Shown here: positions 22,546 to 64,000 of the stretch, in pieces
How the letters are laid out: each line of letters begins with the position of its first letter
Numbering within the stretch: position 1 is the first letter of the stretch
NCBI GenBank assembly: GCA_963693365.1
Contig: CAVNZM010000013.1
Location: 4,817,814 to 4,881,813 of the forward strand
Length of the DNA stretch: 64,000 nt
DNA from: Amoebidium appalachense
Lineage: Eukaryota; Protista; Ichthyosporea
Direction of reading: 5' to 3'
Notes under the pieces: generated by a model
Database searches by the model: none
What the model saw: only the letters and a program-made list of their open reading frames with translations
Told to the model about the DNA's origin: nothing
Translations under genes and position numbers: made by a program

Positions 22546-40006
<17,461 letters not shown>

Positions 40007-41232: not shown

Positions 41233-41685
41233 TTGGACTGCTCCCCCTAGTTGAACAGTTTGGGGGGAAAGCCGAAGGCTCTAAATTCGGATATTCGGGA
41301 TTTGGTTGTAAGGTTTTACGGGTCGGGCCGAAGGCCTTAACGGGCCGCAGGCCCGCCTATTGGGCCGCCAGGCCCGGGGCCCCGGGGACCGGGGGCCTCC
41401 CCACCCACGCGGGCCACCCCCCGGCCCGGCCCGGCCCGCGGGGGCACGGGGAGTAGAGCTCTACTCCCCGTGCCCCCGCGGGCCGGGCCGGGCCGGGGGG
41501 TGGCCCGCGTGGGTGGGGAGGCCCCCGGTCCCCGGGGCCCCGGGCCTGGCGGCCCAATAGGGCGGGCCTGCGGCCCGTTAAGGCCTTCGGCCCGACCCGT
41601 AAAACCTTACAACCAAATCCCGAATATCCGAATTTAGAGCCTTCGGCTTTCCCCCCAAACTGTTCAACTAGGGGGAGCAGTCCAA
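41233..41685. repeat. Spacer-less near-perfect palindrome, arms of 226 and 227 bp, centre gagtagag|ctctactc at 41458/41459
   Basis: Arms compared by eye; the only difference found is a 1-nt indel (gcccgcctat vs gcccgccctat). Confidence 0.95.
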
Positions 41686-43394: not shown

Positions 43395-43454
43395 ACTAAG
43401 TGTGAGGCCGGGAGGCCAAATATAAATGCTAAGTGTGAGGCCGGGGGATGCAAA

Positions 43455-43487
<33 letters not shown>

Positions 43488-44200: not shown

Positions 44201-44245
<45 letters not shown>

Positions 44246-44323
44246 CAGGCCAAATATATATGCTAAGTGTGAGGCCGGGAGGCCAAATATAAATGCTAAG
44301 TGTGAGGCCGGGGGATGCAAAAA

Positions 44324-44359
<36 letters not shown>

Positions 44360-44548
44360 CAGGGAGGGGGGAGGGGGGAGGGGGGCAAATAAATGCATCC
44401 GTGCATGCAAATAATGCTAGAGACCGGGAGGGGGGAGGGGGGAGGGGGGCAAATAAATGCATCCGTGCATGCAAATAATGCTTAGTGTGAGGCTGGTGAA
44501 TCCGGGGGCCAAGTAAATGCATCCGTGTGAGGCCGGGGGATGCAAAAA

Positions 44549-44586
<38 letters not shown>

Positions 44587-44664
44587 CAGGCCAAATATAT
44601 ATGCTAAGTGTGAGGCCGGGAGGCCAAATATAAATGCTAAGTGTGAGGCCGGGGGATGCAAAAA

Positions 44665-44702
<38 letters not shown>

Positions 44703-44885
44703 CAGGGAGGGGGGAGGGGGGAGGGGGCAAATAAATGCATCCGTGCATGCAAATAATGCTAGAGACCGGGAGGGGGGAGGGGGGGGGAGGGGGCAAATAA
44801 ATGCATCCGTGCATGCAAATAATGCTTAGTGTGAGGCTGGTGAATCTGGGGGCCAAGTAAATGCATCCGTGTGAGGCCGGGGGCA
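43395..44885 (+). repeat. Mosaic subterminal tandem array of modules gctaagtgtgaggccggg, ccaaatatatat and gatgcaaaaag(tc)n-ggcagg
   Basis: Dozens of recurrences of gctaagtgtg(t/a) modules. Confidence 0.9.
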
Positions 44886-45142
44886 ACACGTGCTTATATA
44901 TTTATTTGTATTTCCACTGAGCTTTACAAAATAAATACATCCGTGGTGGCACACGTGTCTTCTTAATGTAATATATTTATCTGTATTTCCACTGCATAAG
45001 TTTTACATAGTATCGAAATACATCCGTTGTGGCTCCCCTCTCCCAAAAAATACACTCGGTTGTTTGTAACCCCCCCCCCCCCAACAATACACCCAGTTTG
45101 CTTGCAAAAACTATACCCCAAACACCCCCCACCCACCACACA

Positions 45143-45853
45143 CTACTTGCTGGGCGCGTGTCTCTTGGGGTCATGCTCGACATCGTCACTGCCTCTCTTA
45201 CCACCCTTCGGGGTGGTGGTGCGAGGGGTACCCAAAAGCGCGGGGGGGGGTCCCGGAACGACACGGCCGGGAGGGGCAGGGGGCTTTGTTGAGCCGGCCG
45301 GGAGGGGCAGGGGGCTTTGTTGAGCCGGCCGGGGGGGAGGGGGCTTGCGGTGGGTCTGGTCGGAGGGGTTGTACACAGAACTCATCGGGTTTTCGTCGAT
45401 ACATGCAGACAGCCTGTCACGCTGAAGCCTGTACTCTTCAGCCGTGGCCCTCACGCTCGCCAACTCGACCTCCCTTGCCTGAAGAGCATCCCGAGTCTCC
45501 TTCAGCTGCTGCACAAGCCCCGCTACATTACCGTACCCACGGGACATACGATGGAGCAATTCTTGTGCTTCATTCGCACTCGATGCTGCAGACTCTTGTA
45601 GAGCCTCGTTCTGGCGTTGCAGAGCTTCGTTCTGGCGAACAACTTTCCCCGAAACCTTCTCGACGTCGACGGACAACGACTTGAGCTGCTCCTCGACAAC
45701 ATTGACCCGATTGCAAAGCTCGTTCCACGTCTCGGGGGTGACATAGACCCGACGGCAAAGCTCGTCCCACATCTCGGGGGTAACACGGAAGGTCTTTTCC
45801 CCCTCACCCCCCTCCCCACCCCCTTGACTATGCGGAGACTTGGGCTCTGACAT
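45143..45853 (-). CDS. Hypothetical coiled-coil protein, 236 aa
   Basis: Intronless ATG ORF with an internal duplication (VTPEMWDELCRRV/VTPETWNELCNRV), a long heptad-like stretch and a Pro-rich tail. Confidence 0.65.
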   Translation of the reverse strand: MSEPKSPHSQGGGEGGEGEKTFRVTPEMWDELCRRVYVTPETWNELCNRVNVVEEQLKSLSVDVEKVSGKVVRQNEALQRQNEALQESAASSANEAQELLHRMSRGYGNVAGLVQQLKETRDALQAREVELASVRATAEEYRLQRDRLSACIDENPMSSVYNPSDQTHRKPPPPRPAQQSPLPLPAGSTKPPAPPGRVVPGPPPALLGTPRTTTPKGGKRGSDDVEHDPKRHAPSK

Positions 45854-46689
45854 GACTAGTAACGCTCAAAAACAAAAGAAAGGATTTTCGAGGTGAGAGT
45901 GATCGAAATGAGAAACCCCAATCGGTAACGCTTAAGGTTAAGAACAAAAGGGTCAAGAACAAAAGAAAGGAATTTTTGCCTCGAGTAAGGTTTAGACAGC
46001 GTGAAAGGATTTGATCGACAAATGACCCCCAAATCAGTTAGACTGCCTTTTTATAGCCCCAGCTCCAACAGACATCTTACTCGCGGATCGAAATGGGGGA
46101 TCGATTCGGGACGATTGTCCAAATTATGAGTACGTGAATTGGCTTGACTGCTTTTTTTAGGTCTTTTTTTACTTGTAATGTTTTTGGCTCAACATGGAAA
46201 ATAAATTCATAGGGAACAGCGCGAACAGGTACAACTGCATCTTGTTTTGGGTAGCTCTGGCATGGGCTTTCTAGAAGATGCGCATGCCCTTGGATTGGTT
46301 GGGGCATTTTCACAATTTTAATGCCCCGGTGAAAAGGATTCTTAAAAAACTCATCACAATCAATGCAAAATTCAAGTGTTTTTCTACATAATTTTATTTA
46401 TTTCATTCAAGTCTTGTGTACAACGAACAAAAAACATCAACATGGATGCCATTGCCGCGGGTCATTCGAATATCACCCCTTTTTGCCCCCCCTCCGGTGA
46501 GATGGCTTTTGAATTATTCCGTTTTTTTTAACGCCCACTGTCAAAACGATTATAAAAACCCTCTTTTATCACAATCAAATCTATTAAAATTCAAAATTAT
46601 ACTTCTCTGGATAAGATCATTACAATGAAGTATTAATGATTTTGTTTATACACAATATGTACACAGAAGACCCGCGAATTCAGGATCCT

Positions 46690-46750
46690 TTTGATTGGCT
46701 GGACAGCGATTGGGGTCATGTGTCTTTTTGATTGGTTGGACAGCGATTGA
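46690..46750. promoter_or_regulatory. Duplicated module carrying clustered ATTGG (CCAAT) boxes, between divergent genes
   Basis: tttgattggNtggacagcgattg occurs twice. Confidence 0.4.
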
Positions 46751-47104
46751 GGTATCTCGTGGATCACGTGAACTTCTGAGAACTGTCTGGAGGGGGGCAA
46801 GGCTTTTCAAAGCAAACATCGATGTGCCTGTAACGCAGTGCCTTCTATTGACGCTGTATTAAGATATATTTATGGATAAGTACAGTACACAAAATAAACA
46901 CATACAATAAAAATAATCTCAAATCTTCGCATTGTGGTAGCCTAACTGCAACGGGTATCGGTGGCCGAGACAGTGATTGAAATACATATATGTGGGTACA
47001 CATTTTTGCCCTACTTCGATTACCAATGCTCGAATTATATGACCAAGCGTGCACTTGAACAAACCCGTCGGTTCTACAGTCTCTCACTTCCGGCAACAGT
47101 CTGT

Positions 47105-47306
47105 CACGTCTTAGCGCTACACATTTTTAGCCACAGCAAAACTTCCTTTTACCCCGAAAGATTTTCTACTACACGTCTTAGCGCTACACATTTTTAGCCA
47201 CAGCAAAACTTCCTTTTACCCCGAAAGATTTTCTACTACACGTCTTAGCGCTACACATTTTTAGCCACAGCAAAACTTCCTTTTACCCCGACAGATTTTC
47301 TACTAC
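47105..47306 (+). repeat. Three 67-bp tandem repeats immediately upstream of the JmjC gene ATG
   Basis: cacgtcttagcgctacacatttttagcc... at 47105, 47172 and 47239. Confidence 0.9.
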
Positions 47307-47356
47307 TCGCTTGCACACAAACCACAATTCGCTCACGCACAAACCATTATATTAAC

Positions 47357-48090
47357 ATGGCCGGTTCCGATTTTCAAGAATGGCTCGGCACAACACAAGC
47401 CTACCCATATGCTAAACGTGCAACTTTTCATTTTTCCACCTCTTTCGATGCACACAACGTTTTTGCACATGGGCGGGTCCACGCTATAGAACGCATCGTT
47501 TTGGTGGGAAACAAAACTGCCGATTATCCTGTCAGGCTCTCCATTCTACACAAGGACGAGCAACACGAAATTCTTATGTTTTTCAAAAAAGGCAAGAAAG
47601 GAGAGCAGTCAGGCTGGAAAATTAGGGAGGAAAAGTTCATAGCCGGAAAGATACCAGGAAACGTAATGAAAATTCTGAGACAGGGGGGGAAAGACTGGGA
47701 AGTTTACGATTTGGGGGCATATGCCGACATACACAGAAAGACAATCGACTCCGGGTTCACGTTTGCTGCGGGCCCTGAATACAACGAGGATACCCCTACC
47801 CTTGCCAAGTTACTCTACCTTCTCAGAACATGCCCAATACCCGAAAAGGGGGATTCCCTTTCCATAAACGACGACCCAACACACAGACTCGAACTCAGTC
47901 ACACAATTCGAACAAACATGACGGACCGTGATTGCGTTCTGTTTTTTGGCGGGGTTCGTTATATCAGACTCCCTTCTCTCCAGAAGGCTGCCACCTTGTG
48001 GGCTGCCAAACGTCTTCGTCTTAACAATTTCTCGGCCAGATTTGCGGCGGTAGCAAGCCCACTATCGAGGCTGGCGCCGCCTGCAGGTTG

Positions 48091-48125
<35 letters not shown>

Positions 48126-50937
48126 ACACACACACACATGCACACACACACACACACACACATGCACACACAAAAGGCATTCGGGCACACACATGCACAC
48201 ACACAAAGGCATTCGGGCACACACATGCACACACAAAAAGGCATTCGGGCACACACATGCACACACACAAAGGCATTCGGTGACACACATGCACACACAA
48301 AAAGGCATTCGGGCACACACATGCACACACACAAAGGCATTCGGGCATACACATGCACACACACAAAGGCATTCGGTGACACACATGCACACACAAAAAG
48401 GCATTCGGGCACACACATGCACACACACAAAGGCATTCGGTGACACACATGCACACACAAAAAGGCATTCGGGCACACACATGCACACACACAAAGGCAT
48501 TCGGGCATACACATGCACACACACAAAGGCATTCGGTGACACACATGCACACACAAAAAGGCATTCGGGCACACACATGCACACACACAAAGGCATTCGG
48601 TGACACACATGCACACACAAAAAGGCATTCGGGCACACACATGCACACACACAAAGGCATTCGGGCACACACATGCACACACAAAAAGGCATTCGGGCAC
48701 ACACATGCACACACACAAAGGCATTCGGGCACACACATGCACACACAAAAAGGCATTCGGGCACACACATGCACACACACAAAGGCATTCGGGCACACAC
48801 ATGCACACACAAAAAGGCATTCGGGCACACACATGCACACACACAAAGGCATTCGGTGACACACATGCACACACAAAAAGGCATTCGGGCACACACATGC
48901 ACACACACAAAGGCATTCGGGCACACACATGCACACACAAAAAGGCATTCGGTGACACACATGCACACACACAAAGGCATTCGGGCACACACATGCACAC
49001 ACACAAAGGCATTCGGGCACACACATGCACACACACAAAGGCATTCGGGCACACACATGCACACACACAAAGGCATTCGGGCACACACATGCACACACAA
49101 AAAGGCATTCGGTGACACACATGCACACACAAAAAGGCATTCGGGAACACACATGCACACACACAAAGGCATTCGGTGACACACATGCACACACAAAAAG
49201 GCATTCGGGCACACACATGCACACACACAAAGGCATTCGGGCACACACATGCACACACAAAAAGGCATTCGGGCACACACATGCACACACACAAAGGCAT
49301 TCGGGCACACACATGCACACACAAAAAGGCATTCGGGCACACACATGCACACACACAAAGGCATTCGGGCACACACATGCACACACAAAAAGGCATTCGG
49401 GCACACACATGCACACACACAAAGGCATTCGGTGACACACATGCACACACAAAAAGGCATTCGGGCACACACATGCACACACACAAAGGCATTCGGGCAC
49501 ACACATGCACACACAAAAAGGCATTCGGTGACACACATGCACACACACAAAGGCATTCGGGCACACACATGCACACACACAAAGGCATTCGGGCACACAC
49601 ATGCACACACACAAAGGCATTCGGGCACACACATGCACACACACAAAGGCATTCGGGCACACACATGCACACACAAAAAGGCATTCGGTGACACACATGC
49701 ACACACAAAAAGGCATTCGGGAACACACATGCACACACACAAAGGCATTCGGGCACACACATGCACACACAAAAAGGCATTCGGGCACACACATGCACAC
49801 ACACAAAGGCATTCGGGCACACACATGCACACACAAAAAGGCATTCGGGCACACACATGCACACACACAACTCCCAATATTTACACACACCACCCACCAC
49901 ACACAGAGCAGGAAGAGAAGTTCCCAGTCGAACCCCAATCGCCCCGGTCCACGACACCCATCATCTCCAGACGTATTCCAACCTTTCGCTTGACACCTGA
50001 CATATTGGAGAGGTACACACTGGAGCAGTTCCTGTACAAAATCGGCAAGTATGACGACGTGAGGAGGGCGGGGGCTGCGAGGCTAGTCCTACCCGAGGAG
50101 GTGAAGGAGGCACTGGCAGCAGCATCCCAGGAGCTGGATTTGCCCGGCAGACCCCACAACGTACAAAATCTGCAGGCAACAGAAAACAAAGACGTATATG
50201 CTCTGACGCATGAACTGGACCACGGTAACCTACCGGCCCCACAGGTGTGTTACTTGAGTTTTGGATGGAGAGGAAGCCTCACACCTAGCAATGTTTGCAT
50301 TTACTTGGCCTGCCGAGAGACACTTTTTGCACGCCCCGGCCTCACACTTAGCAATGTTTGCATGAATTTACTTGGCTTGTTTTTGCACGCCCCGGCCTCA
50401 CACTTAGCAATGTTTGCGTGATTTTAAAACTTGGCCTGCCGAGAGACACTTTCTGCACGCCCCGGCCTCGCATGCCCTGACTAAACATTATACTAACATT
50501 GCAACCCGTGAATTAGGGCAATGCATCGTTGTCCGAGAGAGAGTTTTGGGACATGCTGGACGAGCATTGGCCTGAAAGCCGTCCCGAGGAACGGAATCAG
50601 TTGGGGAAACCTGTGTTTGAATTCCACTACGCCAACGAGCACAGCATTCCACCTGGCACACGCACCCCCAGCGAGGTAAGCGGGCGAAGTTGCTCTGCAC
50701 ACCATTTCAGCACTTGCAACCTCCCCTTTGTGACCCCCAATCCCGCACATTGCATCGTTTGTATAGTTGCACCATGCCTCCGGACCGTAGCTATGTAGCT
50801 AAGTGCATGCCCATTCAGGTGGTCAGCGAGACCTACAAATGGATGCCCAATTTAAGGAAATTGGACTCTGTTCTTCATCGCATCCATGAATACCAGCACC
50901 TCGACGGGATATGCATTCCCATGTTTTACAAGTACTA

Positions 50938-50968
<31 letters not shown>

Positions 50969-52210
50969 AAAAAATCCTCACAAGAATTCAGAATAGTTCA
51001 CTTGCCCGCACAGATTTCCCGTCCTCACTCACCCTCCCGACCTCTAATTTTGAATTGACTACCCCATATCCACACACAAGAATTCAGAATAGTTCACTTG
51101 CCCGCACAGATTTCCCGTCCTCACTCACCCTCCCGACCTCTAATTTTGAATTGACTACCCCATATCCACACAAGAATTCAGAATAGTTCACTTGCCCGCA
51201 CAGATTTCCCGTCCTCACTCACCCTCCCGACCTCTAATCGAATCGACTTTGTTTCAATCTTTTGCAGGTCCCGCTATCTTGGTTTGTTCGGCCCACATCC
51301 AGAGGATGCTGCCTTCGGCAGTCTCAACCTAATGGTTGACGGTCCGCACGGAAAACACTGGTATTCGATTAGCCCTGGCAGTCGAGATCGTGTCGAAAGG
51401 GTCCTTCGGGATATCCATCCGGATGCAAAGTCCAAGAAGCCGTGCCCTGGGTTCATGATGCATAAGGTAAGCAGCCAAATTAAGCAAAAGACACGGCACA
51501 AAGGCATTCGGGCACACACATGCACACACACGACACAAAGGCATTCGGGCACACACATGCACACACACGGCACAAAGGCATTCGGGCACACACATGCACC
51601 ACACACGGCACAAAGGCATTCGGGCACACACATGCACACACACGGCACAAAGGCATTCGGGCACACACATGCACTTAAGCAAACACACGGCACAAAGGCA
51701 TCGGGCACACACATGAACACCCAAAGGCATTCGGGCACACACATGCACACTATCATGTGCTTACACCCGGGGTGGGACAGAATATTTTTGTGAACCCGAG
51801 GCTGTTTGGAAAAAGGGGCATCCACGTCTACCATGCAGAGCAAAGGCCGGGCGACCTTATTTACACCCTGCCTGGGGCCTACCACATGGGGTTCGCCTCT
51901 GGCGCCCCACCTTGCCGAGGCGGTCAACTTTGCAACTCGTGATTGGTTGGAACATTTGAACGGGAAGGTACCCCCGTTTTGCACATGCCCCGATCGCCAA
52001 AACGAGACATTCGAGGTACAACCCCCACACCCCCCCCCCCAAAAAAAAAAAAAAAAAAAACGAGACAATTCGTTGGTCTGAAGGTAGTTGAAACAATCTA
52101 TTGGTATCAAAGTAGTTACACACACACCATTACACCCCCGGTATCAAAGTAGTTTGGGGGATTAACTATTAAGCACCTAATCTATCGGTCTAACAGTGTA
52201 ACACACACGC

Positions 52211-52247
<37 letters not shown>

Positions 52248-52385
52248 CACACACACATGCACACATGCACTTAAGCAAACACACGGCACAAAGGCATTCG
52301 GGCACACACATACACACACACGGCACAAAGGCACCTAATCTATCGGTCTAACAGTGTAACACACACGCACGCACACGCACACACG

Positions 52386-52458
<73 letters not shown>

Positions 52459-52518
52459 CAGCTCGACCTCCCTATTTTGAAACGTGAGATGGTGGACTAT
52501 CGGATGCAGAAGCCGTGA
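47357..52518 (+). CDS. KDM4-like JmjN/JmjC histone lysine demethylase, 7 exons (47357-48086, 49907-50244, 50517-50675, 50819-50931, 51268-51466, 51781-52015, 52462-52518), with one apparent +1 frameshift near 51905
   Basis: Jmj[17 protein letters not shown]. Jmj[33 protein letters not shown], then [37 protein letters not shown] and FCTC. Exon phases are all compatible and a TACTAAC branch site sits at 50491. The exon 1 donor is the least certain. Confidence 0.88.
48173..49868 (+). repeat. 32-bp minisatellite, about 53 copies, filling JmjC intron 1
   Basis: Unit aaaggcattcgg(g/t)(c/g)acacacatgcacacac; the same motif recurs in introns 5 and 6. Confidence 0.95.
50978..51238 (+). repeat. ~95-bp tandem repeat, about 2.8 copies, in JmjC intron 4
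   Basis: caagaattcagaatagttcac at 50981, 51077 and 51171. Confidence 0.9.
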
Positions 52519-52539: not shown

Positions 52540-52926
52540 TGGGGGAAACGTAGTTGTGGTGGTGTGGTGTGGGCAGTAGGCACATCTATAGGGTTCGTGG
52601 TGGGTGCGGTGGGGAAACGTAGTTGTGGTGGTGTGGTGTGGGCAGTAGGCCACACATTCACATCTATAGGGTTCGTGGTGGGTGCGGTGGGGAAACGTAG
52701 TTGTGGTGGTGTGGTGTGGGCAGTAGGCCACACATTCACATCTATAGGGTTCGTGGTGGGTGCGGTGGGGAAACGTAGTTGTGGTGGTGTGGTGTGGGCA
52801 GTAGGCCACACATTCACATCTATAGGGTTCGTGGTGGGTGCGGTGGGGAAACGTAGTTGTGGTGGTGTGGTGTGGGCAGTAGGCCACACATTCACATCTA
52901 TAGGATTCATGGTGGGTGCGGTGGGG
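52540..52926 (+). repeat. 78-bp tandem repeat, about 5 copies, downstream of the JmjC stop
   Basis: ggggaaacgtagttgtggtggtgtgg recurs with period 78. Confidence 0.9.
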
Positions 52927-53215
52927 AGAGACGTGGTACAAAGTTTTCATTGTTTCAACAAGTTTTTTTATTATTTTTGTATTTAGCTCGATACCAAAAA
53001 TTTCCGTAATGTTAACTCGAATGTGGTCTGCAAAAATATGTGACGTACCAAATTTTCTTTCCAAGTTTTTATGTGTATTGTAGTCACCCATAGTGGCGGA
53101 GAGACTCCAATAAATATACCAATTCTGCTTTGAATCTGTGACATGTGTGCAATCACACACACACACACACACACACAAAGCTCAACACACACACACACAC
53201 ACACACACACAAAGC

Positions 53216-53509
53216 TCAACACTTTCTCTCATGATTTTCCGTTTCGGCTGGTAGGGTCTCCGGCTCCATCATCTTCTGCAGCACGATGGCTGTCTGCCGT
53301 TGGTTTTGGGGCACCCACTTCTTGAATCCGCACTTATCCGCAAGCTCTTCGGGCAGGTCTATGTAGCCTTTTTCCGCAAGCTCTTGTGCGTATGCTCGTT
53401 GCTCCATCTGCGTCCGCCGGGCGGTGGCCTCGGTCGGCACAATAGTTGCCTGCACCACGGGTGCCTTGCCGGGCTCCTCCTTTAGCTTGTACTCCCATCG
53501 GTACGCCAT
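53216..53509 (-). CDS. Small hypothetical protein, 97 aa
   Basis: Intronless ATG ORF with normal complexity, co-oriented with its neighbours. Confidence 0.5.
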   Translation of the reverse strand: MAYRWEYKLKEEPGKAPVVQATIVPTEATARRTQMEQRAYAQELAEKGYIDLPEELADKCGFKKWVPQNQRQTAIVLQKMMEPETLPAETENHERKC

Positions 53510-53545
53510 ACTCTATGCCACAAAAATCTCTTGCCGTGTCAATCC

Positions 53546-53917
53546 TCATGCCCGCTCCTTGATCACCACCGCCGGCGCATGTGCACACGTGGGGCACGCC
53601 GGGCACTTCTGCTCGGGCGGGCAGTGCTTGCATGCGGGACACTGGGTGCACCGGGTGGGGCTTGCACCGCACACGTGGCAGCGGGGGCAGTGCGCACACT
53701 TGCGGCGGGGCGAGCAGCTGCCGCAGCTGGCACACATCGGGCATGTACCGGGGCACTTGAGCACCGCCAGCCGCCGCCGCACACGCGGGCTGAACGTGTC
53801 CCACAGCACGTAGAGAATGAGCCCGGCGAGCACGGCCAGCAGGATGGGGGAGGGAGGGTTTGTTGTTCGCAAGGCGGAGAGGGGACGGGGCGGTAGAAAG
53901 GGTGCGCCGGCGTCCAT
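53546..53917 (-). CDS. Small membrane protein with a CxxC-rich tail, 123 aa
   Basis: ATG at 53917; hydrophobic helix ILLAVLAGLILYVLW followed by CPxC/CxxC repeats. Confidence 0.6.
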   Translation of the reverse strand: MDAGAPFLPPRPLSALRTTNPPSPILLAVLAGLILYVLWDTFSPRVRRRLAVLKCPGTCPMCASCGSCSPRRKCAHCPRCHVCGASPTRCTQCPACKHCPPEQKCPACPTCAHAPAVVIKERA

Positions 53918-54079
53918 GTTACTCGGTGCATGATATAATGCGGTGGTGGGGGTGCGCGAGAGGTGATGGGGGGGGGGGACTTTTCTCCGATTGCGGAGTG
54001 GGGTTTCCAATCCGGAGGGGGGGGGGGGGGGGGGGGGAGAAGGGAAGGGGAGAGGGTTTTCCCGATTTTGGGAGGATGT

Positions 54080-54915
54080 AACGTTGATCAAAATCGGACT
54101 TGTGTTGTGGCACTCCGAATAATGGAATAAAACGTTGACCGAATTCGGATATGTGTTGTGGCACTCCGAATAATGGAATAAAACGTTGACCGAATTCGGA
54201 CTTGTATTAATTGCTACCGAGCACGCCGAAAAATGAGATGCAACTTTGCCCAAATTCGGACTTGTATTAATTGCTACCGAGCACGCCGAAAAATGAGATG
54301 CAACTCTGACCGAATTCGGACTTGTATTAATTGCTACCGAGCACGCCGAAAAATGAGATGCAACTTTGACCAAATTCGGACTTGTATTAATTGCTACCGA
54401 GCACGCCGAAAAATGAGATGCAACTTTGCCCAAATTCGGACTTGTATTAATTGCTACCGAGCACGCCGAAAAATTGACCGAATTCGGACTTGTATTAATT
54501 GCTACCGAGCACGCCGAAAAATGAGATGCAACTTTGACCAAATTCGGACTTGTATTAATTGCTACCGAGCACGCCGAAAAATGAGATGCAACTCTGACCG
54601 AATTCGGACTTGTATTAATTGCTACCGAGCACGCCGAAATATGAGATGCAACTCTGACCGAATTCGGACTTGTATTAATTGCTCCCGAGCACGCCGAATA
54701 ATGGAATAAAACGTTGACCGAATTCGGACTTGTATTAATTGCTACCGAGCACGCCGAAAAATGAGATGCAACTTTGACCAAATTCGGACTTGTATTAATT
54801 GCTACCGAGCACGCCGAATAATGGAATAAAACGTTGACCGAATTCGGACTTGTATTAATTGCTCCCGAGCACTCCGAATAATGGAATAAAACGTTGACCG
54901 AATTACTTGTATTAT
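54080..54915. repeat. 60-bp tandem array, about 12 units plus degenerate ends, many carrying a ccgaattcgg palindrome
   Basis: aattcggacttgtattaattgct at 54193, 54253, 54313, 54373, 54433, 54481 and onward to 54841. Confidence 0.92.
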
Positions 54916-54943
54916 GGTGCTTATCCATTGAAATGTCTTGGGG

Positions 54944-56542
54944 CTACTGCGCTTGCTCCTGACTGCCCTTCTTGAACACGCTCATGACGAGGTCCCTTGT
55001 CAAGTCGTCTTCCATGTGCTCCCTCGCCATCTCCAGCATGGCCGCAGCAAAAGTCACAAAGTCCACACCGAACAGCTCGCGCTCGACGTTCTTGTGTTTG
55101 AGTGCTGTGTGCAGGCACTTCTCCGCAAGCGCCAGCTGCTCGGACGGCACGGGCAGCGCAAAGAGCAGGCGCTTGTTGGGTCCCACATGCCACGTACCGG
55201 CCTGCTTCATGCGGCCCTTCACGTCCTTCAGACTGAGTCCGATTTTCAGGCAGGGCGGGTCGCCATACTCGGACACGAACACGTAGATGCCGGACTGCTG
55301 CTTGGTGCACACGTGGTTGGTGACCCGGCGCAGCTCCTCGCTGGCATCCTCGTATTCGGGTGGGATGTGGTCCTGCTTGATGCTGTCTGTTGCCTGGAGC
55401 TCCAAAAGCCGGCACTGCGCCTCGAGTTTCAGGCGCTCCTCGCGAATCACACCTGCGCGCTTGTCACACAGAGCGCCTTCCTCGCGCATCATCATGATCT
55501 CCGTGTACTGTGCAGATTCGGCGATGCGCGCCTCCTTGTACAGACTCAGTGCAGTTTCCATCTCGGCCTGGTTGGTCATGAACTGGGTGATGTCTCCGAG
55601 CTTCAGTCTCTTGGGCTCCCTCTCGGGTGTCCTGTCGGCATCCATTTCTGCTTGCACACTGTCACGCATGAAAGCGTTGGGTCCTGACGGGTTGGCCGCT
55701 GCCGTGGCACGGTTGCGCTCGATGTCCTCCACGAGTGTTTCGTCTCCACCTTCCAGGCGCGCTATATCTTGAGCCCACTTGTCGATGATCGCGGAACCAT
55801 AGCGTGAGCCAGATGCAATTTTTAGGGTTAGCCTACCCAGCGACTTAGCAGGCACACCAGGTGATGCCTTCCCTCCGACTTGAAATTGACAGTTGGTCAC
55901 GTTAAGAGAATCTTTGAGTTGAGGGTTATTCTGCAAGAGACGGCGCAGATAGCAACCCGCTGCATTCCTGTCCAAACCACGCACCAGCATGGTATAGTCC
56001 ACCAAGCTTGCCATCTTCACACCGTCGACCTCACATACTCGAATGGCATAGTCGCCAATGCCAATACATTCGCCTTTTTCAGCGACAATCTCGTCTGCGG
56101 TCATTACGACTTCGTTGTGTTCAGTTTCCATGGTTTGCGAGACTGAGGGGTTGTGATGTGTGTTGGGTCTTTTTATACCCTTGGGTTGACTGTCGGGGTT
56201 CACCTTGTTGGACATCAGCCGCGTGATAAAATTGATGCTGCTCATGCGAGCATGGTGCGCGCGCTTGCCGGGAAGAAGGAAGATGATCTCGAGGAGGTCA
56301 CGGAACGAGGCCACTGGGGTGAGCCTCCCCACTCCATTGATGCGAAGTTGGTAAATGCGGCTTACCAAAGGCTTTTTGGATTCATTTCCACCCTTTTTCA
56401 TCTCATGCCAAGCCATCTTGGCAGCATCCATTCCAAATGCTCTGTCCGGTAGCCATGCTGTGTCAGACTGACCCCAGTTGGCTGTGTGTGCTCCTTTTAT
56501 ACCTGCGCACATCAGTCGTGCCGAGAATGCTGGCAGCAACAA
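54944..56542 (-). CDS. Bro-N-like DNA-binding protein with coiled coil and a C-terminal T5orf172/GIY-YIG-like domain (start uncertain)
   Basis: N-terminal IRVCEVDGVKMASLVD..GGDETLVEDIERN; C-terminal SGIYVF..LKIGLS..RMKQ..AEKCLHTALK..RELF. Confidence 0.75.
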   Translation of the reverse strand: MLLPAFSARLMCAGIKGAHTANWGQSDTAWLPDRAFGMDAAKMAWHEMKKGGNESKKPLVSRIYQLRINGVGRLTPVASFRDLLEIIFLLPGKRAHHARMSSINFITRLMSNKVNPDSQPKGIKRPNTHHNPSVSQTMETEHNEVVMTADEIVAEKGECIGIGDYAIRVCEVDGVKMASLVDYTMLVRGLDRNAAGCYLRRLLQNNPQLKDSLNVTNCQFQVGGKASPGVPAKSLGRLTLKIASGSRYGSAIIDKWAQDIARLEGGDETLVEDIERNRATAAANPSGPNAFMRDSVQAEMDADRTPEREPKRLKLGDITQFMTNQAEMETALSLYKEARIAESAQYTEIMMMREEGALCDKRAGVIREERLKLEAQCRLLELQATDSIKQDHIPPEYEDASEELRRVTNHVCTKQQSGIYVFVSEYGDPPCLKIGLSLKDVKGRMKQAGTWHVGPNKRLLFALPVPSEQLALAEKCLHTALKHKNVERELFGVDFVTFAAAMLEMAREHMEDDLTRDLVMSVFKKGSQEQAQ

Positions 56543-56714
56543 TCGACTGGTTTACGGGGAGGGGGGGTATGATTTCTCCGCAATGCAAACAAATTTGTGC
56601 GCGCATACACAGGCATGCGCTCGGACGACACCTTGGGGGTGGCCCTGCTTATATACGCGTGCTGCACCATCCGGGGCGCAGTCGCACACACACACGCACT
56701 GCGTGATATATTTA

Positions 56715-57233
56715 TCATTCTCTACGCAGCCGCCTATTTTTCTTTACTGATTCACATAGCTGCAGCGACAGGATGTCGCAGCCCGTGTCGTGCCAAAGGA
56801 AGTCCTTCAAAAAGTCGATTCGCAGAAGGGTTGTTCGTTGGCTCTTTGCCTCCATGGGAACCGCACGTCCCTCGCCCATGCCCTCCTCCTCCGCCGGATC
56901 CCTCGGTGGCAGCAGCGACAGCGTGGTGTCCCAGCGCTCCCAGGTCAGCCGAAACGACTTGCCCCAATCCAGGTCGATGGTCACCGCATCCCCGGCCCCC
57001 TCCAGTGGACACGTCGAAAATACAAGGTGGTTGAGTCCAGTCCTGTTCGACGCTTCTACCGACTGCAGCGGCAGCATCGTGTCCGACAGCATCGTGTCGC
57101 CCTTGCCGAGTCGTGCGTGGAGCTGCAGCGGCCGGCTCGCCACCCGCCCGGCGCCGTTCGAGTCGAATGTCATGCTCGAGACAAACAGAGAGAGGCGGCT
57201 GACGAATAGCTTCAGGTCCTGCTCAAAAGCCAT
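56715..57233 (-). CDS. Hypothetical protein
   Basis: ATG ORF beginning MAFEQDLKLF; no recognisable domain. Confidence 0.4.
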   Translation of the reverse strand: MAFEQDLKLFVSRLSLFVSSMTFDSNGAGRVASRPLQLHARLGKGDTMLSDTMLPLQSVEASNRTGLNHLVFSTCPLEGAGDAVTIDLDWGKSFRLTWERWDTTLSLLPPRDPAEEEGMGEGRAVPMEAKSQRTTLLRIDFLKDFLWHDTGCDILSLQLCESVKKNRRLRRE

Positions 57234-57609
57234 GGTCGGTTCTGGTGCAGATGCAGACTGGCAGCTCCCCGTGTCAGACACACGCTTTTATACCCTCCAG
57301 AGTCCCCGCCTGCGTCGTCGAACGCTCGTTCGCAAGGTGTCGGTGCTCGAGGCGCTGCACGACCATGAGTGCACTCTTGCGTGTCTGGGCGTGTGCGTGC
57401 GCGGCCCGGACTCGGGTTGCGAGGTGCTCAGCGTGCGCTGTTGTACGTCTCCTTGGACCGCAGGGGTCCGCCCGGGAGACCTGATCGTGGTCTGTGACAT
57501 CAAGCCTGTCGGCCCCGGTTGGCGGAAGATGTATCTCGAGCTCGAGGAGGGTGCGTGGACCAGCAACCTGTGCGCGGCTGGGTGCAAGAGGAGGAAGTGG
57601 TTTCACTAG
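57232..57609 (+). CDS. Putative divergent PDZ-like domain protein
   Basis: LGVCVRG..GCEVLSV..SPWTAGVRPGDLIVVCDIKPV resembles the PDZ pattern LGF.I.G..GV.V..V..GSPA..AGL.PGD.I..VNG.PV. Confidence 0.4.
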   Translation: MVGSGADADWQLPVSDTRFYTLQSPRLRRRTLVRKVSVLEALHDHECTLACLGVCVRGPDSGCEVLSVRCCTSPWTAGVRPGDLIVVCDIKPVGPGWRKMYLELEEGAWTSNLCAAGCKRRKWFH

Positions 57610-57782
57610 AGAGGTTGTGCAGCCGAGAGCCCACAATTTTTAGGCAAGGGTCATGTCAAAGCAAAGAGGTCGCTCCAAAAAGAGGGGTCACAGACGTGTG
57701 AAGTACGTGTATGCAGACGAGTTCATGCCAAAATACAGGAGACTGGTGCTCCGCCAGAGCGTGCGAGTGAAGCGTAAATGAG

Positions 57783-59198
57783 TTATTGTTTGGTTTCTGC
57801 GTCCGTTGGATTGGTTTTCGCTTTAAACGGAGCCAATAGCCTCTCCATATCTTCCATCGAAACTAGCCTGCTGAACAGCACGCCAAGGTCTTGCGTCACC
57901 TCGTGCCAATCATAGAACAGGTACCCCATGCGGATGCGCCCGTCCTTGAACAGCGCGACGTAGTCTATGTCTCGCACATGTCTGATGGCGACCGTGAGTG
58001 CCTCGAGCCTCTGCTTCATTGGAGTTCTCTGTGTTTTGCTGTCGACCTTGAATCCGTGTGGGTTGAATCGAATAAACATGGTCGGCACTTCGTGCGCAGA
58101 TGCCTGGTTGAACATCCGTGCAATCTCGCACGTGGTGTCATAAGCACGGTGTTGCTCTTCGTCCACCTCGACCACAAGTACAAATGTCCCAAAGTCGTAG
58201 TAGAGATCAGGACGAGTGCGCTCCCCACAATCATTTGGCACGATTTTGTCGTGGCTGGTGGGTGGACCTATGGAACGCGATATGTGACGTAACACCTTTA
58301 TTTCAGGACGCGCCTCAGACCACTTAGCTCGGCGTATGGATTGTGGGTCGCAAGTGGCGCATAGGTTTCCCCTCTTGTGTACTTGTGTCAGCGTGCACGC
58401 CACGCAGAAGTTGCGCAGGTCACACAGCCTGCAGGTACGCCTATGCTTACCGTGTTCACAAACTCCCTTTCCACCACATGCTTTGCAATGATACCTCCGT
58501 TTACCGTGGTCGCAAACACTGGATCCGCCGCACAGATTACAATCGAATTTCAGTTTGCCATGTTTGCAAACACCCAATCCGCCACACGCTTTGCACGCAT
58601 ACCTTCGTTTACCGTGTTCGCAAATCCTGGATCCGCCACACAGATTACAATCGCATTTCAGTTTGCCGTGTCCGCAAAAACCGGATCCGCCGCACGCCTT
58701 GCACTGAGACCTTTGTCTGCCGTGTTCGCAAATCCTGGATCCGCCACACAGATTACAATCGCATTTCAGTTTGCCGTGTCCGCAAAAACCGGATCCGCCG
58801 CACGCCTTGCACTGAGACCTTTGTCTGCCGTGTTCGCAAAAACTGGATCCGCCGCACGCCTTGCACCGAGACCTTTGTCTGCCGTGTTCGCAAACACCCA
58901 ATCCGCCACAAGCCTTGCATGAGTACCTTTGTCTGCCGTGGTCGCAAACACCGAGTCCGCCGCACGCCTTGCACCGAGACCTTTGTCTGCCGTGTTCGCA
59001 AAAACCGGATCTGCCGCACGCCTTGCACCGAGACCTTTGTCTGCCGTGTTCGCAAAAACCGGGTCCGCCGCACGCCTTGCACCGGTCCCTCCGTTTACCG
59101 TGTTCACATTCAGGATAACATTTTTTCGATTTCATTTCCTTTATTGTGTCGACAGAGTTCATTCCCATTATAAGTGACAGAAAATATTGCACATACAC
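57783..59198 (-). CDS. Cys/His-repeat (CEHGRQRSRCKACGG, 18-aa unit) protein with a C-terminal PD-(D/E)xK-type endonuclease, NCLDV-type
   Basis: About 13 zinc-binding repeats followed by RPDLYYD..VVEVDEEQH..CEIARM..FIRFNP. Confidence 0.85.
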   Translation of the reverse strand: MYVQYFLSLIMGMNSVDTIKEMKSKKCYPECEHGKRRDRCKACGGPGFCEHGRQRSRCKACGRSGFCEHGRQRSRCKACGGLGVCDHGRQRYSCKACGGLGVCEHGRQRSRCKACGGSSFCEHGRQRSQCKACGGSGFCGHGKLKCDCNLCGGSRICEHGRQRSQCKACGGSGFCGHGKLKCDCNLCGGSRICEHGKRRYACKACGGLGVCKHGKLKFDCNLCGGSSVCDHGKRRYHCKACGGKGVCEHGKHRRTCRLCDLRNFCVACTLTQVHKRGNLCATCDPQSIRRAKWSEARPEIKVLRHISRSIGPPTSHDKIVPNDCGERTRPDLYYDFGTFVLVVEVDEEQHRAYDTTCEIARMFNQASAHEVPTMFIRFNPHGFKVDSKTQRTPMKQRLEALTVAIRHVRDIDYVALFKDGRIRMGYLFYDWHEVTQDLGVLFSRLVSMEDMERLLAPFKAKTNPTDAETKQ

Positions 59199-59378
59199 AC
59201 TCCCGAATTGGACTTAGCCATTTCTACACTGAACTACACTCGATTTCTTGTAGCCATCTAAACCAAAATCACCCCCAAGTCACATCATTTATAAACAAAT
59301 CCAACCAACCCAACCAACAACAGAACAACTTGATTTTGTTCCCTAAAACCGCCACACACCACCACGGGCCATGCATGC

Positions 59379-60794
59379 TCAGGCGTGGGACCCCTGCCCC
59401 AGGCAGTCCTTCTTGTGCTCACCCCAATCGCGGGTCTGGCAGTCCCTGCTGCAGTAGTAGACGTGCTTACAGGCCGAGCACTTCTTGGTGCGCCCGGTCG
59501 AGCCGCAGGTGGCACAGACGACAGAGGGCAGCTTGTCGATGAAGTGCTTGACGGCCCGGTTGCACCATTCATACATACACATGTTGTCCATGTCGTACTC
59601 CGTGGACACGGGAAGAGTGCTCACCGCAAACTCCGCAATCTGCACAACAGCCTCGGGCGTGGTGTGCTCGAGGCCGGAAGACGCGCACAGTACATGAAGC
59701 ATCATTCTGAAGACAATACCGGCGCCCGTGCTGATGTTTCCGGCATACAGGGCATTGTAGTCCCGCTCCTCCAGCACGTAGCGGTGGAAGACACAGTAGT
59801 GCCTAAAACACGCGAAGTAGGCAGCCATGTTGCGTTCGGCCGCAGTCACCGTTGGGTCGTTCACCCATCTCCGCTCCTCTATAGCACGCATCTCGCCCGC
59901 CAGGGTAGCCTCGCATTCCATGTAGCGCTCCTTGTTGCGAAACACACGCAGGTCGCCGCACTCCAGAACTTTTAGCATCAGGTTGCAGACCGGGTCCGAG
60001 TGGAAACGCAAGTGGCTGTCCATGGTGTAGACCACGACCTCGTTTTTCGACACCGTTGGGTCTTGGTGGGTGGGTTGCTCCTTGCAGTCCTTCTTGTGCT
60101 CGGGCCACTTTTGTTTCATACAGATGTCATTGCAGAAGTAGGCGTTTCTGCAGCGGGTGCACTTCTTTGTGTCGACGGGCGAGCGGCACTGGAGACATGA
60201 CACGGAAGGCAACTCGTTCACAAAGTGCTCGACGGCCCGGTTAGCCCAATCATTGTACACCACGTCGTCAATGTCCTTGCATAACGTATACGTACGCAAG
60301 GCGGAAGTGGCCGGCTCTTGACTGAAGTGGGCAGGGGGTCGGGCCTTGAGACCGGACCGCTCGCATAGCGCCGTCCCCACGAGCATGAAGAAGTCCTGAA
60401 CCCCTTGACCGAGCGTGCCCTCGTGGAGAGCCTCATGGTCCGGATTCCCCAGCACGTAGCGCTGGAAGGCGGCGTACATTGGGAACGCGATGGAGTGCAG
60501 ACAAGTGTCCCAGAGGGGCGGCACCCGCCCAGGCCCGTGGGGTTGTCTCTCCAAATGCAGCAGCAAAGTTTTCATGTCGTTTTCAAGGACTGAACGGAAC
60601 GCAGCGAAGCTCTCCCGTGTTTCGAAGATGCGGAGGTCGCCGTCTCTCGCAACTTCCAGCAGCCGAGCGCTGACAGGGTCCCGGTGGAGCCGATACTTGT
60701 CGTCCACGGCATAGACGACGACCTTGTCCGTGTCCGAGCCGGGGGGCCGGACGATGAAAGGCAAAGCCACGGCCTCTTCAGGTGTTTGGTCCAT
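59379..60794 (-). CDS. Protein with two tandem [unknown domain + MYND zinc finger] units
   Basis: CLQC..KKCTRCRNAYFCNDICMKQKWPEHKKDC and CATC..KKCSACKHVYYCSRDCQTRDWGEHKKDC. The two halves are homologous (VVVYAVDDKYRLHRDPV / VVVYTMDSHLRFHSDPV). Confidence 0.88.
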   Translation of the reverse strand: MDQTPEEAVALPFIVRPPGSDTDKVVVYAVDDKYRLHRDPVSARLLEVARDGDLRIFETRESFAAFRSVLENDMKTLLLHLERQPHGPGRVPPLWDTCLHSIAFPMYAAFQRYVLGNPDHEALHEGTLGQGVQDFFMLVGTALCERSGLKARPPAHFSQEPATSALRTYTLCKDIDDVVYNDWANRAVEHFVNELPSVSCLQCRSPVDTKKCTRCRNAYFCNDICMKQKWPEHKKDCKEQPTHQDPTVSKNEVVVYTMDSHLRFHSDPVCNLMLKVLECGDLRVFRNKERYMECEATLAGEMRAIEERRWVNDPTVTAAERNMAAYFACFRHYCVFHRYVLEERDYNALYAGNISTGAGIVFRMMLHVLCASSGLEHTTPEAVVQIAEFAVSTLPVSTEYDMDNMCMYEWCNRAVKHFIDKLPSVVCATCGSTGRTKKCSACKHVYYCSRDCQTRDWGEHKKDCLGQGSHA

Positions 60795-60944
60795 GCTTGT
60801 GCGTGAATGCCAGCGTGTGGTGATTTGTCTAGTGAAACGATCCGCTAAGAAAGGCGAGAAAGAGGGACGTGGTGAGATGTCTGGCAACAATCGTTTGGCT
60901 GGGAGTTGTTGTGAGGGAGAATGTGTGAAAGCGTGAAAGTGACA

Positions 60945-61200
60945 GGATTGGCCTCGTGTTGGTCTCTTATGTAGGATCGGTTTTCAGAAAGTACTGGTAT
61001 GGCATGTCCACAGCGCCATTTGATTGGAGTTCAATTCGCGCGCTGATTGGTTGGCAGGGATGGTGATCTAGGTTGAGCTAATGTGATTGGTTCGCAAAAT
61101 TCTCACAGCATTGAAGTGAGCCGCGATAATTAATTTGATTGGTAGATTTGCATATCCGATCTGACAGCCAATTTTGATCTTAGTCATGATTACACCAATC
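60945..61200. promoter_or_regulatory. Cluster of 7 CCAAT/ATTGG boxes plus an ATTTGCAT octamer, upstream of the MYND gene
   Basis: ATTGG at 60947, 61023, 61046, 61086 and 61138; CCAAT at 61168 and 61195; atttgcat at 61146. Confidence 0.5.
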
Positions 61201-61665
61201 AAAACGCGATAGCTGTCAGCCCTGAGAAGCGCAGCCGTGCTGGACACGACCAGTAAATAAAAATTGCCACTTCCTCTTCCACACCTGTGTTGTGGACCGT
61301 AGCGCTTGCATGCATGGTGCTGCTCGTGCTGCTTGCCGCGTGCTGGCGCTCAGGGGGGGGGGTGGGGTCTTGTTGTTTGTGTTAATGTACCGACAGCGTG
61401 CCCTTTGTGACACTTGCAGTGGGTTGTTGTTGTTGCCTTTTACAACCACCGCTCTGGACACAAGATCGAACAGCTATCAAATTGACCATATATATGACCA
61501 AGAAAAACAAGGTTACCAAAGATCATTGTAGCAGTGCGTCCTCCGTCTTGGCGCGCCCTACGTCCCAGCGGTTTTTAGGTTCCATTAGCACTGCGATGCA
61601 TAATCTCTGTGTGTGCTCCCCGAGTTTCTGGGGAGGGGGCGCTCCAAACTATCTCTTCGGAAGGT

Positions 61666-61920
61666 ATGACTTCTCCGAACATTGCAAACCTGAGATTTGA
61701 CAACCCGAGTAACTCGTGGGTGCGCAGGGATGACATTGCCGCCGACCCGCACGAGTACCACCTGACCATCGACAACAGCACGCGCTTCATGCTCTACATG
61801 GGCACTTCATTGGACGACCATGATGCACAGCTCAAGAGCGCTTCGATGTGGAGGGGCATAGCGCTTGCATGCATGGTGCTGCTCGTGCTGCTCGCCGGCG
61901 TGCTGGTGTACAGGTGGTAG
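61666..61920 (+). CDS. Small tail-anchored membrane protein, 84 aa
   Basis: C-terminal hydrophobic helix GIALACMVLLVLLAGVLVYRW directly before the stop. Confidence 0.55.
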   Translation: MTSPNIANLRFDNPSNSWVRRDDIAADPHEYHLTIDNSTRFMLYMGTSLDDHDAQLKSASMWRGIALACMVLLVLLAGVLVYRW

Positions 61921-61978
61921 GGGGGGGGGGGGGGGGTTAAGTTTGTAATTTTTATTCCTGGGCCGCACCAGGCGGACT

Positions 61979-62569
61979 TCACACGAGTTGGTTGCCCGGT
62001 TGATCTTGTTGTTTGTGTTTATGCACCTCCTTTCGATGTCGCCACAGCCCACTACGCCATGAGAAGGCCTTTGAGCACCCTTCCTCAGCGCATATGTAGG
62101 AGCGCTGACCTGTATGGATGCGGTTATGAAATTTAAGCGCGTTGGCAGTTTTGAAGGTTGCTTCACATCCAATAGCCTTGCACATTAGCTGTTGTATTGG
62201 ATAGTGCGTTCGTAAGTGCATAAGAAGTGCCCCCCGATATGAAAAGCGCCTGCCACACCCCTCGTGTTCGCAAGCGTATGGGCGTTCACCCGTGTGTCTT
62301 CTTTTATGTCGCAGAAGTCGTCCAGATGTCGGAGCCCTGTAGGTGCATCCGGTGTAGTTGCATTCAAATTTTTTTACTCCAGTGTGAGTTGTCATGTGTG
62401 CGTCCAGGCCAACCTGCTGTGTGCACCGTACTGCACAACCAGGCCATGTACAGGAAAATGGTTTTTCACCGGTATGACATGTGGCGTGACGTTGGAGGTT
62501 CTGCTTTGTTGCAAATTTTTTATTACATATCGCACATATATAGTCTTGCATATTCATGTATGGCATCAA
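61979..62569 (-). CDS. Intronless C2H2 zinc-finger protein with 6 fingers
   Basis: Canonical C-x2/4-C..H-x3/4-H fingers with TGEKPF, TGERPY and TGQRSY linkers. Confidence 0.9.
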   Translation of the reverse strand: MMPYMNMQDYICAICNKKFATKQNLQRHATCHTGEKPFSCTWPGCAVRCTQQVGLDAHMTTHTGVKKFECNYTGCTYRAPTSGRLLRHKRRHTGERPYACEHEGCGRRFSYRGALLMHLRTHYPIQQLMCKAIGCEATFKTANALKFHNRIHTGQRSYICAEEGCSKAFSWRSGLWRHRKEVHKHKQQDQPGNQLV

Positions 62570-62785
62570 AAAAATAAGAGGTTACTGAAACCCGGTAGTC
62601 GGGTCGTCGGTAGTAGCTAGCCTTTGCACTGGGAATATTTTTCACCTTTTTATTTTTTTCTAAAAGTAAGTTACCACCCAACGACCCGACTACCACTAAG
62701 TAAAATCATCAACCCAACTCAAAATCTATAATAAAACACCACTTTGGAATGTGTCTGGGTAGCTACTTGTCGTAAGATCCCGCAG

Positions 62786-64000
62786 CTATTCCAGCGAACC
62801 AAGACGGTCCTGCTCCATGGCCTGACAAACATCTTTCGACAGACCAACCCTCTCAAACGACAAAACATAACAGTACCGAGATGCTCCATTGACCTTGGTA
62901 GCCACTGGTTGTCCCAAAATAGCTCGAAGCGCACTACCAAACAGCTTTTGGCTTGGTCTCTGACTGCGCCCGGTTGCGTTCCGCTCGTGCCACAGACGAA
63001 AGTAGTTAAACAGGTCGGTGCTGGTGAACCGTTGGCCATCAACAGGTCTGGGCCATTCCTCACATCCGTTGTCCCCCGTCACAAGGTCGCGTAGAAACTG
63101 CAGTTCGTCTGGCCGTCCAAGATCTGTCAACCGTGAACGAAGTTCGGTTGTTGGAGGGGTTGGCATACGCTGGGGGACATTCACTTCAGCCATCAGCTCG
63201 TCCAAAATTGCCTGGAGAACAGATGGATTGGAGTGTCGTTCCTTGAATTCCGCAAAGTATGCAAACTGCCCCTTCCTCTCCGACGAAGATTCAAAACAGG
63301 CCCATCGTCGGTCACCCTCCTCTAGATTCAGTGGGTGTGACTCGTTGCTGAGAATCACATAGCGTTCACAACTCTCCACAGTAATGATGTCACACCCCTT
63401 CTTTTCCATAAGGCTTGTGGTTTCCGTAACACGGGCCTTCATCTGGTTGATGATATCAACATTACCATGCCAAAACACCTCATCGCACACGATGAGCAGT
63501 CGGTTGTTGAGATGGGCATTGAAGTTCCCACCAACGTGCTTTTTGTTTGTGACGGACACATAGTAGTCGCGTCCGATGATATCACCCAGGACATCAAAGA
63601 ACACGTTCTTGCCCACACCTTGGACTGACCGGAAGACGAGAGCCACTCCTGGTTTGATGTCAGGGTACTGAAAGAGCTGGGCCAACCAGTGACGTGTGTA
63701 GAGGTAAGCTTTCTCGTCGTAGTTGCACAACATGCGAAGATGGTCAAAAAACATACTGGTTGCCGATTGCGCGAGAGGGCGTGTGGGGTTGTGCACTATC
63801 TTGAGTCCACGAAAAATGTTAAAAGGACGGCCTTGCCTCATGACATTTTGTGCACGACGCTTCCCCGTCCGTGGATCCGGGTCTGCTGGGTCAAACACAA
63901 AGCGCGAATATTGCAGTATGTGGTCACTCTCCATGAACCAGGTACCCTTGTAGACACGCGTGATGGGCCGATTGCGCTCAAAAAATTCCATTCTGAAGAG
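62786..64000 (-). CDS. D5-like primase-helicase, SF3 helicase part; 5' end probably beyond the window
   Basis: Walker A region KPGVALVFRSVQGVGKN, Walker B LIVCDE, ILSNE and DRRW, with a probable C-terminal winged helix. Confidence 0.88.
   Translation of the reverse strand, partial: LFRMEFFERNRPITRVYKGTWFMESDHILQYSRFVFDPADPDPRTGKRRAQNVMRQGRPFNIFRGLKIVHNPTRPLAQSATSMFFDHLRMLCNYDEKAYLYTRHWLAQLFQYPDIKPGVALVFRSVQGVGKNVFFDVLGDIIGRDYYVSVTNKKHVGGNFNAHLNNRLLIVCDEVFWHGNVDIINQMKARVTETTSLMEKKGCDIITVESCERYVILSNESHPLNLEEGDRRWACFESSSERKGQFAYFAEFKERHSNPSVLQAILDELMAEVNVPQRMPTPPTTELRSRLTDLGRPDELQFLRDLVTGDNGCEEWPRPVDGQRFTSTDLFNYFRLWHERNATGRSQRPSQKLFGSALRAILGQPVATKVNGASRYCYVLSFERVGLSKDVCQAMEQDRLGSLE

Follow-up and report, generated by a model that had tools for sequence, protein, structure and literature searches.

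Does a KDM4-like gene in the genome of Amoebidium appalachense (Ichthyosporea) belong to an inserted virus, and could its product counter the silencing of that insert? The gene lies at positions 47357-52518, on the forward strand, of a 64,000-nucleotide (nt) stretch of contig CAVNZM010000013.1 (assembly GCA_963693365.1, positions 4,817,814 to 4,881,813), referred to throughout as the window. An earlier reading made from the letters and open reading frames (ORFs) alone, the sequence-only reading, described it as an element-borne, spliced histone demethylase. The overall reading preferred here, with a probability of roughly 0.7, is of a spliced KDM4-like JmjC gene of a viral insert, predicted to erase H3K9 methylation and thereby to act against silencing.

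The KDM4-like gene is real, spliced and transcribed. It runs from an ATG at 47357 to a TGA ending at 52518, exactly as first described, in seven exons (Table 1) separated by six introns, all of which begin with GT and end with AG (6/6) in compatible phases. The spliced model encodes 609 amino acids (aa), with no internal stops when a break in exon 6 is set to X. At least half of the sequence words of exon 1 are contained in 16 of the 24 public runs listed. In runs X4 and X5, one contig of 1535 nt each skips introns 2 (272 nt) and 3 (143 nt) exactly, both being seen as GT..AG joints, and the loose ends of these contigs agree with the last part of exon 1 and the first part of exon 5; 822 nt of contig precede exon 2, with a loose end that corresponds to 48054-48083 in exon 1. 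Contigs of runs X4 and X6 connect exon 5 to exon 6 and exon 6 to exon 7. The RNA junctions, which the sequence-only reading had left to be confirmed, are supported by spliced contigs in all six cases, two as joints and four (introns 1, 4, 5 and 6) by loose ends whose match to the neighbouring exon was judged by eye. The RNA origin of X4-X6 is read from these spliced contigs; none of the matching runs listed is on record as RNA. The genomic-type runs X10 and X7 continue into the introns with no joints, and run X15 has no contigs over exons 2-4 and is uninformative on expression.

The break in exon 6 raises the alternative of a frameshifted pseudogene, a decaying relic inside the insert. The break is present in the window near 51905 and could be real if the window isolate differs from that of the runs. 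However, it is absent from all four runs that cover exon 6, spliced and genomic (4/4), and no contig with the broken form is found among those listed for these runs. Three further single-base differences (exons 4 and 6) are common to every run covering them, the pattern that consensus errors in the window would give. Because the four runs lack it, the break is probably an assembly consensus error and the gene intact; such an error is the simplest reading, with another isolate as its alternative, and a decaying relic is highly improbable. The earlier call for a frameshift-corrected protein is probably unnecessary, as the transcript reads through.

The sequence of the gene product supports a KDM4-like JmjC identity. 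Pfam matches JmjC on exon 6 (E=2.4e-10, above the cut-off), and the H-x-E...H iron triad of the domain is present. All 37 matches of exon 5 in the PDB are KDM4A-D, 2w2i (a chain named 2-oxoglutarate oxygenase) or Rph1, with KDM4D and KDM4A on top and no KDM5. When exon 5 is aligned with KDM4D, H-x-E, the N of SLN, the K and W of KHWY and C...HK line up, and when exon 6 is aligned with KDM4A, the H of YH, the A-V-N of EAVNF and CxC do so. The G of DGI (G170) and the Y of MFY (Y177) align both with a fungal KDM5 and with KDM4-type proteins. The iron ligands (H-P-E and YH), the zinc site and the methyl-lysine pocket (G of DGI, Y of MFY and N of VNF) named from the letters alone hold up in these alignments to KDM4/5 relatives, as do two of the proposed 2-oxoglutarate (2-OG) contacts (N of SLN and K of KHWY); the third, the Y of HYANE, is ambiguous in register. 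Equivalents of the pocket residues G170, Y177, E190 and N290 are present, with Ala at 288; a role of N290 in this pocket is our assumption, as is the numbering of positions 288/289 and 309/311. The Ala at 288 (EAVN), previously likened to KDM4D, is indeed there, but it is also the state of KDM5 and JMJ14 and is therefore no KDM4D marker.

Both zinc half-sites (C...H and CxC), which we take to be KDM4-defining and whose numbering we likewise assume, are found in the model and in all four KDM4-type references, and in none of the 21 KDM5-type references. These reference labels were first set by zinc motifs and then split independently by the tree (96% bootstrap), for which 27 references were used: P0001 and 26 of 80 metagenome loci, those whose JmjC frame was of sufficient length, with the other 54 loci (short, split or near-duplicate) left out. 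Among the ORFs of the 80 loci, the best match is KDM4-type (105.7 bits) and the best KDM5-type match scores 80.1 bits. The PHD and Tudor domains of canonical KDM4A-C are absent, the stop falling 27 residues past CxC and the exon 7 junction being seen in spliced contigs; for the ARID/PHD insert and C5HC2 finger of KDM5 there is no room in the spliced model and no Pfam match. Searches for longer protein relatives gave none with exon 5 and one, a fungal KDM5, with exon 6, and those with exons 1, 5 and 6 returned no JmjC proteins of Amoebidium's giant endogenous viral elements (GEVEs). Exons 2, 3 and 4, searched singly in the PDB, had no relevant matches. Exact short patterns, which have low sensitivity, found no KDM4/5-like genes in IMG/VR, and the 10 metagenome loci inspected resemble ordinary protist or algal genes.

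The gene most likely lies inside the viral element, because virus-like ORFs stand to its right and an intronless ORF, tandem arrays and a palindrome upstream (Table 1). Bases 1-39800 are host-like, with intron-rich fragments (6PF2K and a weak RGS) and one tRNA gene, while 53200-64000 is ~80% coding with intronless ORFs. The observed/expected (o/e) CpG ratio is 0.50 at 1-39800, 0.89 at 44900-47356 and 0.96 at 53200-64000, and there are 0.37 C/G runs per kb in the last of these regions versus 2.96 in the first. For the coding sequence of the KDM4-like gene the CpG o/e is 0.84, within reach of the element ORFs (0.82-1.22), compared with 0.50 for the host bulk, in which host exons are not separated. 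The element-borne position claimed earlier is thus supported, the gene sitting among intronless, CpG-rich, virus-like ORFs. We infer the giant-virus class of the element from its match with Amoebidium inserts in the literature. None of eight element ORFs is present in the protein collection as an exact sequence, and there is no close viral contig for the helicase at 62786-63991, nor a primase domain match in the in-window part of that ORF. In the Cys-repeat ORF, the domain after the repeats presumably resembles a PD-(D/E)XK nuclease; it has no Pfam match. The host-like part is also rich in C/G homopolymers of at least 10 (118 runs) and in CA tracts (122).

Table 1. Features of the KDM4-like gene and its surroundings, in window positions.
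Feature	Position	Strand	Description
tRNA gene	34285-34357	-	host part
near-perfect palindrome	41233..41685	.	453 bp, no spacer; apparent left border of the element
intronless coiled-coil ORF	45143..45853	-	upstream of the gene; first ORF past the repeat block
exon 1	47357..48086	+	243-aa orphan N-terminal region, in same frame and transcript as JmjC part
intron 1	48087..49906	+	1820 nt; C32 run, CA tract, 32-bp unit x54
exon 2	49907..50244	+	JmjN-like pattern by eye; statistical support lacking
exon 3	50517..50675	+	EREFW helix; HYANE, an ambiguous candidate for Y132
exon 4	50819..50931	+	DGICIPMFY (equivalents of G170, Y177)
exon 5	51268..51466	+	iron ligands H-x-E, N198, K206, first half of KDM4 zinc site (C...HK)
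exon 6	51781..52015	+	third iron ligand, EAVNF, zinc-site CxC; frame break near 51905 in window, not in runs
exon 7	52462..52518	+	final 18 aa, then stop; PHD and Tudor absent downstream
virus-like ORF block	53216..64000	-	dense, intronless
460-aa ORF	53546-54928	-	20-aa repeats x12.6, likely membrane segment, Cys-rich tail
weak T5orf172	54944-56512	-	in ORF block
Cys-repeat ORF	57783-59168	-	461 aa; ~13 C-x-H-G...C-x-x-C repeats; phrog_37414 (E=3.8e-8) on the repeats
MYND ORF	59379-60794	-	in ORF block
C2H2 ORF	61979-62566	-	in ORF block
DUF5906 primase-helicase	62786-63991	-	PHROG DNA primase (E=2.7e-33); frame open at window edge

Several results weigh against the overall reading. The spliced runs all come from one study, and a flag marks them as possible sources of the window DNA. 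Exon 6 alone scores higher with KDM5-type proteins (JMJ14 49.7, KDM5A 45.5 and KDM4A 41.0 bits), scores over the core overlap (KDM4-type 199-233 vs KDM5-type 162-222), and identity to the best KDM4-type reference is ~29% (92 of 314 aligned residues). In a 28-row unrooted tree with no outgroup, the gene falls between the KDM4 and KDM5 groups with a branch length of 3.1. The Tyr of HYANE, the candidate Y132, never stands opposite the Tyr of YGAD in the alignments made: its spacing to HxE is 63, compared with 52-54 in the three KDM4-type proteins measured. With KDM4 spacing, the Y132 position would fall on Pro-Gly-Thr-Arg; the exon 3 region is longer by ~25 residues. Pro replaces Trp before the first iron His, and the YxY pair has Met in place of its first Tyr. 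The JmjN-like pattern is rightly placed by eye, yet 63/500 and 45/500 shuffles score as well, and exon 2 has neither a Pfam match to JmjN nor a PDB match. As to the element, the nearest Atlas clusters of the helicase are mostly viral and phage-like (commonest known phylum Uroviricota), giant-virus capsid, VLTF3 and A32 are absent among the ORFs scanned, with the element continuing past 64000, and three of the six introns of the KDM4-like gene bear host-style C runs.

These introns bear on the alternative of a host-lineage KDM4 paralogue (or a host-domesticated one), at the edge of the insert or recently picked up by it, that serves host chromatin. Besides the C runs in three of the six spliceosomal introns, two have CA tracts, the gene is transcribed, and a couple of genes resembling KDM4 are described among host genes, with the direction of transfer left open, in the text of PMC11244446. 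However, CpG-rich intronless ORFs lie on both sides of the gene, its coding CpG o/e is within the element range, it stands ~5.7 kb on the element side of the palindrome, and it is extremely divergent and without PHD or Tudor. A host-serving paralogue is thus decidedly unlikely, and a position within the viral element is preferred.

The predicted protein resembles human KDM4D and KDM4E and fungal Rph1 in its iron triad, 2-OG Asn and Lys, zinc site, Ala at 288, branched residue at 289 and lack of PHD and Tudor, and differs from them in its low identity, orphan N-terminus, degenerate JmjN, enlarged exon 3 region and uncertain Y132. With KDM5/JARID1 and plant JMJ14 it shares the EAVNF motif and the top scores for exon 6 alone, but it lacks ARID, PHD and C5HC2 and carries the KDM4 zinc site. 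In the literature, Y132, N198 and K206 are 2-OG contacts and G170, Y177 and E190 methyl contacts, and S288A/T289I increase activity on dimethyl marks (text of PMC13632499); the KDM4E changes tied to poor H3K36 activity include Ala, Ile and loss of Asp311, and arginine demethylation is also reported for KDM4E (text of PMC11831885). Here, Ala-Val stand at 288/289, and an ungapped reading puts Pro/Arg at 309/311, with an Asp one residue away. Since Ala-Val is as in KDM4D/E and no Arg309/Asp311 is in register, H3K9me2/3 is predicted from these residues to be a likelier substrate than H3K36, and an active histone demethylase is predicted with good, though not high, confidence. An element-borne JmjC oxygenase off H3K9/H3K36, acting on another mark (H3K4 or methyl-arginine) or a non-histone target, or a weak binder, would accommodate the ambiguous Y132, the Trp-to-Pro change beside the iron His, the degenerate JmjN and the KDM5-like EAVNF and exon 6 scores, as well as the reported action of KDM4E on arginine. 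It would not be expected to keep three iron ligands, N198, K206, G170, Y177, N290 and four zinc ligands despite ~70% divergence elsewhere, nor, if KDM5-like, to be without the C5HC2 finger and the ARID/PHD insert, and is considered unlikely.

The kind of gene and the anti-silencing idea are already known. Among the domains of the giant-virus inserts of Amoebidium, JmjC shows the strongest enrichment (text of Sarre et al., 2024, PMC11244446). The same text describes KDM4-like genes, divergent KDM4 paralogues with JmjC only, in 52 (39%) inserts; they differ from other insert genes in having kept a multi-exon structure, transcription is seen in four cases, 5-azacytidine reactivates them, and they are proposed to allow escape from H3K9me3 silencing. 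The gene described here very probably belongs to this group, as it is likewise multi-exon among intron-poor viral genes, a divergent KDM4 without PHD or Tudor, and transcribed, as the published genes are under some conditions. Unlike the GEVE genes as published there (JmjC only, Pfam-defined), it has a 243-aa N-terminal region. The orphan N-terminus and the palindrome at the apparent border go beyond that text: neither an N-terminal region nor a palindrome, hairpin or inverted repeat is mentioned in the main text and supplementary PDF, the figures and table archive being outside that search. No biochemical test of Amoebidium KDM4-like enzymes was found in the literature surveyed, including the text of PMC12344493, and the present locus adds a spliced example that is probably intact and has a defined cDNA, making the published biochemical claim easy to assay.

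In the mechanism proposed, the likely carrier of a gene captured from host KDM4 would be a giant virus endogenous to an Amoebidium-like protist, the Fe(II)/2-OG-dependent product would remove H3K9 methylation, and this would loosen host silencing of the inserted viral DNA. Anti-silencing, the role also proposed for the published insert genes, is a plausible function and is proposed here as somewhat favoured. A virus with a captured host heterochromatin eraser would be a clear case of chromatin conflict. The TET-like anti-silencing genes described in the texts on a punuivirus and Polinton-like viruses (bioRxiv 10.64898/2026.10.09.758095; 10.64898/2026.06.19.733378) are similarly virus-borne epigenetic erasers with a proposed action against host silencing, and intron-bearing in an endogenous giant virus, but they target DNA methylation and the gene here is of a different enzyme family.

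The palindrome is paired at 226/227 positions (-353.7 kcal/mol, z -44.5). There is no second copy in the window, and its centre has no matches in viral contigs. It could be a foldback transposon, or the terminal hairpin of a linear viral genome in opened form. It is followed, at the host/element transition, by tandem arrays of a 92-bp unit (x8.8) and a 47-bp unit (41941-44900). Between the host-like part and the palindrome lie 1.4 kb without simple repeats (39800-41232), which may be element or another insertion.

Exon 1 makes up 40% of the protein and went unmentioned in the sequence-only reading. It has no homologues at E<=0.001 among 1.84 billion representatives, and none among longer proteins, IMG/VR, the ESM Atlas, PHROGs, NCBIfam, phage records or the PDB. 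Single-sequence AlphaFold models are unusable (predicted local distance difference test scores, pLDDT, of 31.1 and 36.3), and a fold search with the first of these low-pLDDT models gave no match at E<=0.001. A Pfam match to Relaxase (aa 7-70, E=0.007, 17 bits vs a cut-off of 24.6) was rejected: four plasmid matches without a relaxase are chance matches, and no HUH motif is seen by eye. For the KilA-N-like look of the second half, no support was found. Exon 1 might conceivably be a targeting module, acquired by the virus in place of the lost PHD and Tudor readers, that steers the enzyme to the insert, perhaps via the palindrome and arrays, although this is doubtful. If true, it would make the product a self-addressing anti-silencing enzyme, with its gene next to a terminus of the viral genome formed by an opened hairpin.

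The introns and flanks of the gene contain further repeats. Degenerate copies of the satellite unit found upstream (43400-44900) lie in inverted orientation in intron 2 (50276-50472); contigs over these copies are much deeper in run X10, suggesting that they are probably dispersed in the genome. A related 32/37-bp minisatellite unit is found in intron 1 (48155-49870) and intron 5 (51491-51750), and a 96-bp unit (x2.8) in intron 4 (50974-51238). Minisatellites also stand just 5' of the ATG (67-bp x3, 47105-47306) and just 3' of the stop (78-bp x4.4, 52581-52927).

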